Assembly: GCF_003019035.1 (NCBI RefSeq) | Contig: NZ_CP027447.1 | DNA from: Escherichia coli | Lineage (GTDB): Bacteria > Pseudomonadota > Gammaproteobacteria > Enterobacterales > Enterobacteriaceae | DNA length: 64,000 nt | Direction: 5' to 3' (one strand) | Shown: one piece after another, positions 55,801-58,800 of the stretch | How positions within the stretch are numbered: position 1 is the first letter of the stretch | Layout: every line of letters begins with the position of its first letter | Program-made: the position numbers

Positions 55801-58800
55801 GAAAATCAATGATGTTTTAATAATGGATAGGTAAAAAATAACAAGTGACACAGATTCAACCCAAAATGAAAAAGGGTGGCAACCCACAAACGCCCACTCC
55901 ACATCCATGACAATCCATACACAATACCAGATAACGTGGCAAATAACATAAGTAAAGTACCACCTGAATAATGAAAAAGACCAAACAGCAAAGCTGCCAC
56001 AACTAATGCAACCAATGGGGATATTACTTCTGATAACCGTGACTGAATATATCCTCTAAACAATGACTCCTCTGCCAGAGATACAAAAAACAAATTAGCC
56101 AATATAAACTCTGGCAACCACTCAGGGAAATGAATTTCTGGATTTAACCCACCCAAAAACACAGCCAAAAATAAGATAAGAGGAACAGAGAGAAAGAGAC
56201 ACCCCCACATCCACAAAGACACTTCTGATTTTATTTCTTTTTCAAACAAAGAGGCTGTACACAGGACTAACAAAAATGGCACTAGCGCCTTATCAAAATT
56301 AAAATACATTGTATATGGTGTGCTTTTAGGTCCGACAGTAACAGACTGTAGCACTACGGGATTGTGAAAACCAGGCCATAAATGGAAAGATAATGCTATG
56401 GCTGATAAAACCATACCAGCCTCATATATATTTTTAACCAAGACATTATATTTCCAGTTAAATTTTAAGATAGTCAAAAGAAATATTGTAGCAATAAAAA
56501 ACAATACCGGCAAGTCAATAATATTATTGACCACTCCTAGGACAACAGACACCATCAATAATGAAAAAGACACTACCTTACGCCAACTGAGAGTGAACAG
56601 TGACAGAGCTAACACAATCCACATAAGCATTCCTTTTATTTAATAACTAAGATTTATTATCAATATTTTTAATCTACATGGCAACATTTAATTTCCTTTT
56701 CACAAAGTGTATACCACAAAAAATAAACACATTAATTATAAAAGCAGAAAACATAACCATCGCAATATGTATTCCTACCGCATATCCATATCTAACCTGA
56801 CACTCAGAGCCATAAGCATCCCTTCAATAATACCTTCCGCTTTATAAAGTCTTTTACCAATCAGTCCATCAGAACATCTGTGCTTACGTGCAAGTGTCAT
56901 GAACGTCATTCTACCTACGTAATAATCTACCAACAAATCGTGCAAATCCTGATTATTCTTGTTTAATCGTGCCATACAGCCACAAATTATCATGGCATCA
57001 TCATCAGAACACTGAGGACGTGATTTCACTTTAGTCGGGATCAATCCTTTAAAACCGGCAGCAATAGATGACCATGTAACATCCTCGTGGTTATTTGCCA
57101 CCCAAGCTCCCCATCGTTCCAGAACCATCTGAATATCACGCGCCATAGTTATTACCTCTGATTTCGTAAATCTTCACATCCAGCCTCCCACCAGGAACGA
57201 GCTGACCGCGCACAATATTGATTTCATCAAACTGCTCGTCGTCTATGAGTAGTCCTGCATGCGTCAGCGCATCCAGTGGTGCTTTCAGGATATTGTCAAG
57301 GTCACGACGGCGCTTATCCGGTGGCTCTGCAATAATCTTTATCGCCAGCCTTCCGGACAGGTTTAATTTCAGTTGCTGCTGGCGAACAATAAGCGCCACA
57401 TCACGGCGATAACGCTCACCGGCTTTTGATACAAAATATGTGCTGCTACGACGACGCCAGTAGGTATTCACCGTCGGAGGGTAAGGCAAAACAAATTCTA
57501 TCCCCATCAGTAACCTCTTTTATCCGAGTACGCCAGTTGCAAAGGCGTGATCAAGAAAACGAAAAATTAAATCAACCTGAGAACCATGCTTTTCTTCGAA
57601 CGCCTGCGGATCTGCATGAAGTTCGTTGTGATGTTCCCGGCACAGCGGCAACGTAAAAATATCGTGGGCCTTTGTTCCCATCCCACCCTGACCGTGACCT
57701 ATCAGGTGATGGGGATCGTCTGCTGGTTGACCACAACACGCACACGGCTGTGTCTTCACCCAGCGCGTATATTTCTCATTTACCCAACGGCGACGTTTAG
57801 GTCGCCTCATGAAAGATTCCGGAGACTCCGGATCAACGGTGATGCATACCACCATCTTTTCCAGTGGTGGGTTCTGTTGCTGGTGGGAGTGAGGCAACGG
57901 CGCAAGATTTTTTGTGCGCTGCTTCAGTATGTTGGTGGCAGTCTGCTCTCCCGGTACGATGTCGCTTTCGCGGTACACCGCGCGGATTTTTTCCGCACGT
58001 AACCCCAGAGAACGACGTAATACTGCCTCCGGAAGCGTGTCCGCCACTTGATTGCAGACCGCCCACCAGGATAATTCAGCCAGCGATAACTCCCTCTCCT
58101 GCGTGCCATTCATTGCATGGCGTATGACGTCAATCATCCATGCTGACAGATTTTGATGAGCAAGTTGCCCGAGTGATTCGGATGTCTGGTCACGCAGCTG
58201 GTTGTCGCAGTGCCAGCACAACACCATCGCGCCGGTACCGTAACGATGTATGACGATTTCACTGTGATGATAGTCACCATGAGGCCACTGGCAGGATTTG
58301 ACATGACGCAACAGCCAGTCAGACAGTGCCCCAGCGCCGCCAGCAGCACGAATCACCCGCTCATCGCTGAAAAATGGCAGTAATGATTTATCCTCCGCCA
58401 GCGGCTGGCGAACGGCAGGGACGACTCCGGATGGCAGGCCGCACATGCTTTTCGATTCCGGCTCCACCAGCACTCGAGGATTGTGAAATACCTGCATGGA
58501 TTCACGACCTGGCTTAAGGACCACCAGCCCGAGTTCCGGTACCAGAACAGGTCGAAGTAATACCCGCACGTTACCTCCAGATGCGTTGCTGGAATGTGCG
58601 GGACGGACGCGGTGGGCGTTCGGAATAAGGGAGTCTGACGTAGATTATCCAGTGACGATAATCGAGGCTGAGGGCTTTCCTAAACTCATACCCACGTCTG
58701 CGGTAGTTCTGTATCAGCCATTCGGCCTGTTCTTCAGTGCAGGGGGCATGCTGATACCAGTCATATTTGAATGTGTGAGAACGCCGCCCTTGCCTGCTGG

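Follow-up and report, generated by a model that had tools for sequence, protein, structure and literature searches.

The closest described counterparts of the locus reported here are the Q-pR'-tR' regions of the Shiga toxin (Stx) phages 933W and H-19B and of the Sakai prophages Sp5 and Sp15, and the Z1787 locus of Escherichia coli O157:H7 EDL933. In the Sakai strain, the start of transcription from the late promoter pR' was mapped by differential RNA sequencing and the terminator tR' by Term-seq, 258 nt downstream; the transcript ended at tR' is the Hfq-binding small RNA StxS (Sy et al., PMC7547250). The geometry of the 933W record agrees with this distance: it annotates pR' overlapping the 3' end of the antiterminator gene Q, then qut, a proximal hairpin and a second terminator about 258 nt past pR'. 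We consider a stretch of 64,000 nt from E. coli (RefSeq assembly GCF_003019035.1, contig NZ_CP027447.1), referred to below as the window, which carries an Stx1d prophage of this type with a Q of the same family, a pR' that agrees in hexamers and spacing, a counterpart of qut, an StxS-like leader and tR'. In this prophage a gene for a CPBP-family intramembrane protease stands, as judged by alignment, between Q and pR', i.e., outside the late operon that Q controls.

The gene itself is already known; it is an allele of Z1787 (prophage CP-933N, O-island 50 of EDL933) and is found in about 10% of complete E. coli genomes. The two products have the same length, 272 amino acids, and align without indels at 85% amino acid and 88% nucleotide identity, and the order of genes (DUF968 gene, RusA gene, Q, CPBP gene, pR') is the same in both loci. 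The primers published for the Z1787 knock-out and for quantitative PCR fit, with 0 mismatches, inside the CPBP gene and in its flanks at the O157, O103 and O55 loci; considering this match together with the synteny, Z1787 is the orthologue of the window gene. The loci differ further downstream, where the leader of CP-933N-type prophages is followed by an open reading frame (ORF) of 65 amino acids, a helix-turn-helix gene, three tRNA genes and nanS-p, whereas that of the window is followed by stx1d; the DNA downstream of position 55655 is replaced relative to CP-933N-type prophages.

The features that bear on the placement of the gene are the following:

56775-57146, minus strand: Q antiterminator gene of the Q933/QuuD type, 123 amino acids (PF06530, E 2.6e-51)
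55806-56624, minus strand: gene for a CPBP/Rce1-like intramembrane glutamic endopeptidase, 272 amino acids, the Stx1d-prophage allele of EDL933 Z1787
55704-55731, minus strand: late promoter pR' (TTTACG-16-TATACT), from base-for-base alignment with pR' of 933W (TTTACG-16-TATCAT)
55683-55690, minus strand: qut counterpart, ATATTGCT here and ACATTGCC in 933W, from alignment to the 933W feature table
55653-55667, minus strand: first leader hairpin with a degraded T-run, counterpart of the proximal "possible terminator" of 933W
55336-55529, minus strand: StxS-like part of the late leader, 89% identical to and colinear with 933W 20762-20960, ending in tR' (stem 55356-55343 and T-run)

The DNA 3' of the CPBP gene was aligned with phage 933W, with three prophages of O157, O103 and O55 strains and with two prophages that have related Q genes (ETEC4069 and EC12). 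The pR'-qut-hairpin block of 933W aligns to positions 55731-55653 of the window, starting 75 bp past the CPBP stop codon. The -35 hexamer is the exact point at which homology among five phages sets in; the DNA upstream of it is unrelated or absent. A pattern search found a single pR'-type element in the whole window, the one at 55731-55704, and the 144-bp spacer between Q and the CPBP gene holds no promoter-plus-terminator unit of the pR'/tR' type. Over 121 amino acids the window Q shares 79% identity with the Q of 933W and therefore belongs with a promoter of the 933W type. Both pR' (55731-55704) and tR' (55356-55337) lie downstream of the CPBP stop at 55806. The only pR'/qut thus follows the gene, which on the alignment sets it apart from the Q-dependent late operon; since Q-modified RNA polymerase loads at pR'/qut, Q acting at pR' cannot switch the gene on.

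The preliminary description proposed a different arrangement, in which the CPBP gene is the first late gene, driven by Q from pR' together with stx1 and the lysis genes and closed by a terminator of its own. It is true that the gene stands on the strand of Q and stx and between the two, and the window is devoid of tRNA genes over its entire 64 kb, so that this much of the earlier account of the Q-stx interval stands; the gene does not, however, lie between pR' and stx. A late position also appears possible elsewhere, as a CPBP gene 56% identical to the present one follows a terminator and directly precedes the holin gene in a lineage with a lambda-type Q. For the window, the position of the only pR'/qut, the lack of a second such unit in the spacer and the identity of the supposed terminator (see below) make the late-gene model highly improbable. 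The proposed co-induction with Stx by Q should accordingly be reworded, inasmuch as prophage induction would raise the CPBP transcript alongside Q and not through Q. In Stx1d prophages the gene beside stx is thus not part of the toxin and lysis operon, and there is no ground for taking it to share the regulation of Shiga toxin.

The hairpin at 55356-55343, described earlier as the terminator of the CPBP gene, is real, but by its alignment with 933W and by the Term-seq geometry it is the tR' of Stx phages, at which the stx-controlling StxS leader ends; the window counterpart of the Sakai tR' is 55356-55337. When phage genomes were searched with the DNA around the CPBP gene, the only matches were in Stx1 and Stx2 phages, to the segment 55220-55529 and with 85-90% identity. 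The possibility that the segment 55333-55529 is pR' itself was rejected, because the 933W feature table shows it to be leader downstream of pR'. From pR' to tR' the leader is colinear with those of 933W, an Stx1c phage and another E. coli prophage, barring one insert:

55545-55650, minus strand: G+C-rich sequence of about 110 nt inserted in the late leader, past the proximal hairpin and ahead of the StxS-like core, delimited by alignment

Among the phages compared the insert occurs only in the window, being absent from 933W, the Stx1c phage and the other E. coli prophage. It is overlapped on the plus (antisense) strand by an ORF at 55507-55692, which has no Pfam match; RefSeq has a plus-strand hypothetical protein at the corresponding site of strain RM8082. 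An Rfam scan gave only a weak RprA-like match (55332-55449, minus strand, 30.7 bits, E 0.46), which is below the gathering threshold and not significant alone; the rpoS-activating seed of StxS is reportedly shared with RprA, DsrA and ArcZ (PMC7547250).

The leader of the window departs from the canonical one in its first nucleotides as well. The initial transcribed region of pR' (55685-55703, minus strand) reads TAAAAATATTTAT, whereas 933W, the O157, O103 and O55 prophages, ETEC4069 and EC12 all read TAAGAGTGGTTA(C/T) there, so that 4-5 of 13 positions differ. The T-run of the proximal hairpin is lost in the window (GCTTTATATG versus GGGTTTTTTGT). The loading or pausing of Q at this pR' may differ from that in other Stx phages.

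The assignment of the product to the CPBP family, made earlier from the sequence alone, is borne out by a hidden Markov model search: the protein matches Pfam PF02517 (Rce1-like) with E 1.2e-19 and 70.8 bits, well over the curated cut-off of 22.4, along profile positions 3-92 of 93. The ORF of 274 amino acids from the first ATG (55806-56630) is intact, as had been described. The second ATG, at 56624, is the likely start and yields 272 amino acids; it is preferred because AAGGA precedes it by 7 nt, a normal spacing, because RefSeq places the start there, and because the identical product of 272 amino acids is present in public databases. In this numbering the motifs are EESLFR (185-190), FGLFH (214-218) and HFGLN (253-257), so that E185-E186...R190, F214...H218 and H253...N257 are all present, and EExxxR, FxxxH and HxxxN are invariant across 52 aligned homologues (47-85% identity). 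The full catalytic signature noted in the preliminary description is thus confirmed. An AlphaFold model built on the alignment of the 52 homologues (pLDDT 95.4, pTM 0.91) has about nine transmembrane helices, which makes the earlier figure of roughly eight a fair one. By its motifs and profile match the ORF is a real, intact CPBP/Rce1-like intramembrane protease with a complete catalytic signature. The NCBIfam models of CPBP subfamilies (e.g., myxosortases) matched only below threshold, and the protein falls in none of those named subfamilies; its own subfamily has a conserved extramembrane beta-hairpin loop at residues of about 81-112. The matching PHROG, number 13291, has no assigned function. 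The prophage alleles have a dN/dS of 0.12-0.30 and differ by no indels; the gene is under purifying selection.

A Foldseek comparison of the model with the PDB placed two proteins at the top, Rce1 of Methanococcus maripaludis (4CAD, probability 0.99) and SpdC/LyrA of Staphylococcus aureus (6U0O, probability 0.98), which we take to be the solved structures of the CPBP family. The E-values are only 0.02-0.08 and the TM-scores 0.43-0.50; a sequence profile search of PDB chains gave nothing at E up to 1, so the link to both proteins is drawn from the comparison of folds. With Rce1, a type II CAAX prenyl endopeptidase, the CPBP protein shares EExxxR/FxxxH/HxxxN and a multi-helix membrane fold, but it is only 14% identical to it (TM-score 0.43-0.46); bacteria are not known to have prenylated CAAX substrates. 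SpdC, the second-best match (TM-score 0.47-0.50), is described as lacking catalytic residues and as serving as a scaffold for the glucosaminidase SagB. Unlike SpdC, the CPBP protein keeps every catalytic residue and has no evident partner gene, even though the annotation pipeline PGAP names some of its alleles "lysostaphin resistance A-like protein".

Concerning expression, one further feature is relevant:

56656-56684, minus strand: candidate sigma-70-like promoter (TTGCCA-17-GATAAT) in the 144-bp spacer between Q and the CPBP gene

It is the best promoter-like match of the region, with 10 of 12 consensus positions, and the O157, O103 and O55 alleles keep both of its hexamers although the spacer is altered elsewhere. 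A scan of the spacer gave no terminator-like site. In uninduced cultures of enterohaemorrhagic E. coli (EHEC), reverse transcription PCR and microarrays revealed the Z1787 transcript (PMC2654852); the presence of the O157-allele transcript in such cultures, at levels that changed with the growth condition, independently supports expression of the gene on its own. We presume that in the lysogen the gene would be transcribed from its own sigma-70 promoter in the spacer and that after induction it would, by analogy with lambda, also be the last gene of the early-right operon, reached by read-through from Q. Polymerases arriving from upstream would not be loaded with Q at pR' and would stop in the leader or at tR', unless they were made resistant by early antitermination. 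It is conceivable, though quite unlikely, that a CPBP mRNA started at the gene's own promoter and reading into the pR'-tR' leader is a second, Q-independent source of StxS.

The interval between Q and pR' is not occupied in the same way in related phages. The slot is empty in 933W and in the Stx1c phage, where Q runs at its 3' end up to or into pR', whereas in the window Q and pR' are 1.04 kb apart and the CPBP gene lies between them. With related Q genes, the slot holds an ORF of 166 amino acids in the Stx2e prophage of ETEC4069 and an ORF6N gene in strain EC12. The Q-pR' interval is thus a cargo slot in the Q933/QuuD family, filled by the CPBP gene, an ORF6N gene, another ORF or nothing. CPBP alleles of 59-63% identity in other E. 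coli and Shigella prophages also stand between a PF06530 Q gene and a TTTACGTACGTAAATT promoter block; as they keep the Q-CPBP-pR' order, the placement is old. The G+C content is 36.7% in the CPBP coding sequence, 22.9% in the spacer before it and 49.6% in the whole window. With a base composition unlike that of its surroundings and a slot content that varies among related phages, the gene is a "moron", an AT-rich accessory cargo lying between Q and the promoter on which Q acts.

Of 5426 complete E. coli genomes, 571 carry the CPBP gene, the majority being of serotypes O157:H7, O55:H7, O145:H28, O111:H8, O103:H2 and O121:H19. All carriers have it at 88% nucleotide identity save three strains, RM8082, JNEC-KY180 and C311, which are also the only 3 of the 5426 genomes with stx1d and whose Stx1d prophages are 99% identical to the window stretch. 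The window Q allele occurs in 605 genomes, 570 of which also carry the adjoining CPBP gene. The pair resides mostly in non-Stx prophages of EHEC; in the four prophages examined the leader is followed by the ORF of 65 amino acids, the helix-turn-helix gene, three tRNA genes, nanS-p and the holin gene, with no stx. The gene was previously presented as a peculiarity of the Q-stx slot, but Q-CPBP-pR' is a common module of non-Stx lambdoid prophages. As to whether it is a common and characterised constituent of Stx phages, it is common and has been studied, but it belongs mostly to non-Stx prophages and its function is unsettled. A tblastn search of 50,697 phage records with the CPBP protein gave no match, which left no deposited genome of an Stx phage to compare with, and in the literature on CPBP or CAAX proteins with Stx phages or antitermination we found no description of the Q-pR' placement.

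A 56%-identical gene is found on two contigs from metagenome and Sequence Read Archive data (L023, 4741-6268, and L024) between a lambda-type Q gene (PF03589) and a holin gene; a strong terminator (L023 4831-4856) separates it from Q. On this arrangement the gene may be late, past tR', in the PF03589-Q lineage. It is tempting to propose that this CPBP subfamily has been captured repeatedly at the Q/late boundary, next to two unrelated Q families, for a phage-directed job at the early-to-late switch; we consider this quite unlikely. If true, the protease could, for example, condition the inner membrane before the holin acts or process a late or toxin-related product, and the gene would not be just a passive one of lysogenic conversion. 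An O157 copy was also sought in the Sakai prophage Sp17 and dropped, as Sp17 has a different, lambda-type Q and another membrane-protein gene. Its segment 10900-12519 carries the lambda-like Q (ECs_3501) and directly after it a "membrane protein" gene of 247 amino acids (ECs_3500), possibly a further case of membrane-protein cargo where Q meets the late genes.

Dickeya, Photorhabdus and Enterobacter have homologues of about 50% identity as single genes of the chromosome, flanked by ordinary chromosomal genes, and one such homologue lies in a Salmonella island between insertion sequence elements. Close homologues are found in plant- and insect-associated Enterobacterales (Dickeya, Photorhabdus, Xenorhabdus). 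A homologue in Pseudomonas aeruginosa, represented by two contigs (L028 and L029), is 62% identical over 73% of the protein and stands directly upstream of genes for an M23 peptidase, a CtpA-like S41 protease and a polysaccharide deacetylase; the high identity in so distant a host suggests recent horizontal transfer.

We believe that the locus is best read as a cargo of the Q-pR' interval encoding an inner-membrane protease, placed outside the late operon and serving the lysogen; taken as a whole, this reading is probable. That the active site is complete and invariant, that selection on the gene is purifying and that lysogens express it speak together for an active inner-membrane protease. 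The protein would most likely act in the lysogen's own inner membrane, where it would cleave a membrane-associated peptide or protein or bind it through the conserved active-site cavity; it would then be a factor of lysogenic conversion rather than a part of toxin release or lysis. Several points weigh against this reading. Promoter-like matches are not enriched over shuffled sequences in such AT-rich DNA, and the candidate promoter is a match to the consensus. The immunity/N region lies outside the window, and early read-through is taken from the lambda paradigm. The changed initial region and the lost T-run could have weakened the pR'/qut of the window. The contexts of the homologues in Dickeya, Photorhabdus, Salmonella, Enterobacter and Pseudomonas show no conserved neighbour and give no lead to a substrate. 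Finally, the STAT-1 phenotype discussed below comes from one paper, with a marked deletion and partial complementation, and Z1787 is absent from the follow-up.

Z1787 was put forward in 2009 as a candidate virulence gene, when its deletion in EDL933 was found to abolish the block of STAT-1 phosphorylation induced by interferon-gamma (IFN-gamma) (Jandu et al. 2009, PMC2654852); the deletion was a marked one and the complementation partial. In the same study E. coli HB101 with Z1787 showed a partial effect on STAT-1, the transcript rose 2.7-fold with epithelial cells, and the authors suggested a released protease (PMC2654852). As stated, this suggestion is unlikely, being hard to square with about nine membrane helices. 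In 2012 the same laboratory described the inhibitory activity as a secreted, proteinase-K-sensitive protein factor, without mention of Z1787, and concluded that the factor was still unidentified (PMC3256229). The claim has not been consolidated since. A transcriptome paper on E. coli strains that make Shiga toxin (STEC), of serogroups O26 and O145, which cites Jandu et al. 2009, reports a "CAAX protease" gene, equated by its authors with Z1787, as differentially expressed, 3-13-fold down in adherent cells (PMC7649339). As the product is an integral membrane CPBP protease, an effect on STAT-1 would require the processing or export of another, secreted factor. One may suppose that the protease matures or releases a secreted blocker of IFN-gamma/Jak/STAT-1 signalling in epithelial cells, a view favoured by the 2009 results with the deletion, HB101 and epithelial contact, by the secreted nature of the inhibitor, on which a membrane protease could act only indirectly, and by the concentration of the gene in EHEC and STEC serotypes. 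We regard this virulence role as rather unlikely, considering that it comes from one study, that the marked deletion lies directly upstream of pR' and the StxS-like element, where polar or small-RNA effects are possible, that the follow-up leaves Z1787 out, that the change in adherent O26 and O145 strains is opposite to the 2009 direction, and that Dickeya, Photorhabdus and Xenorhabdus, which have close homologues, offer no such host target.

The preliminary description also named abortive infection and bacteriocin immunity as possible roles. Prophage morons often encode exclusion functions, and a membrane protein expressed in lysogens (PMC2654852) could interfere with DNA entry and thus guard the lysogen against superinfecting phages. 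None of the 5027 models of PADLOC-DB matches, however, PHROG 13291 is without a known function, and about 50% identical homologues are single chromosomal genes at unrelated loci whose flanks lack Pfam families typical of defence. PF02517 carries the "Abi" label for historical reasons, which does not amount to evidence of abortive infection, and we consider an exclusion function unlikely. A factor of immunity or resistance to a membrane-active bacteriocin, a microcin or a contact-dependent toxin has a precedent, since CPBP proteins are bacteriocin immunity proteins in lactic acid bacteria, at Gram-positive bacteriocin loci, and expression in the lysogen would fit; CPBP proteins have also been proposed as immunity proteins in polymorphic toxin systems (PMC3482391). 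Neither the window nor the O157-type prophages nor the chromosomal homologues examined have a bacteriocin, toxin or transporter gene next to the CPBP gene, and the strict conservation of the catalytic residues points to enzymatic activity. Such activity is not always needed for CPBP immunity. An immunity function, too, is in our opinion an unlikely explanation. Neither of the two proposed roles thus found a PADLOC match or a toxin or bacteriocin partner in the contexts examined, and we return to a protease that serves the lysogen as the reading to be preferred.

The other genes around the CPBP gene are as follows:

57520-58569, minus strand: DUF968 gene
57136-57507, minus strand: rusA
54075-55022, minus strand: stx1dA (PF00161; RefSeq stxA1d in RM8082)
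53796-54065, minus strand: stx1dB (PF02258; RefSeq annotation)

Along the minus strand the order is thus the DUF968 gene, rusA, Q, the CPBP gene, pR'/qut, the StxS-like leader with its additional insert and altered first nucleotides, tR', stx1dA, stx1dB and the lysis genes; after stx1dAB come, on the same strand, genes for a phage-21-type holin, a DUF1327 protein and a lysozyme. A ParD antitoxin/ParE toxin pair (58916-59541, plus strand; PF03693, E 2e-07, and PF05016, E 4.5e-10), opposite in strand to the early genes, separates the DUF968 gene from the early region upstream.

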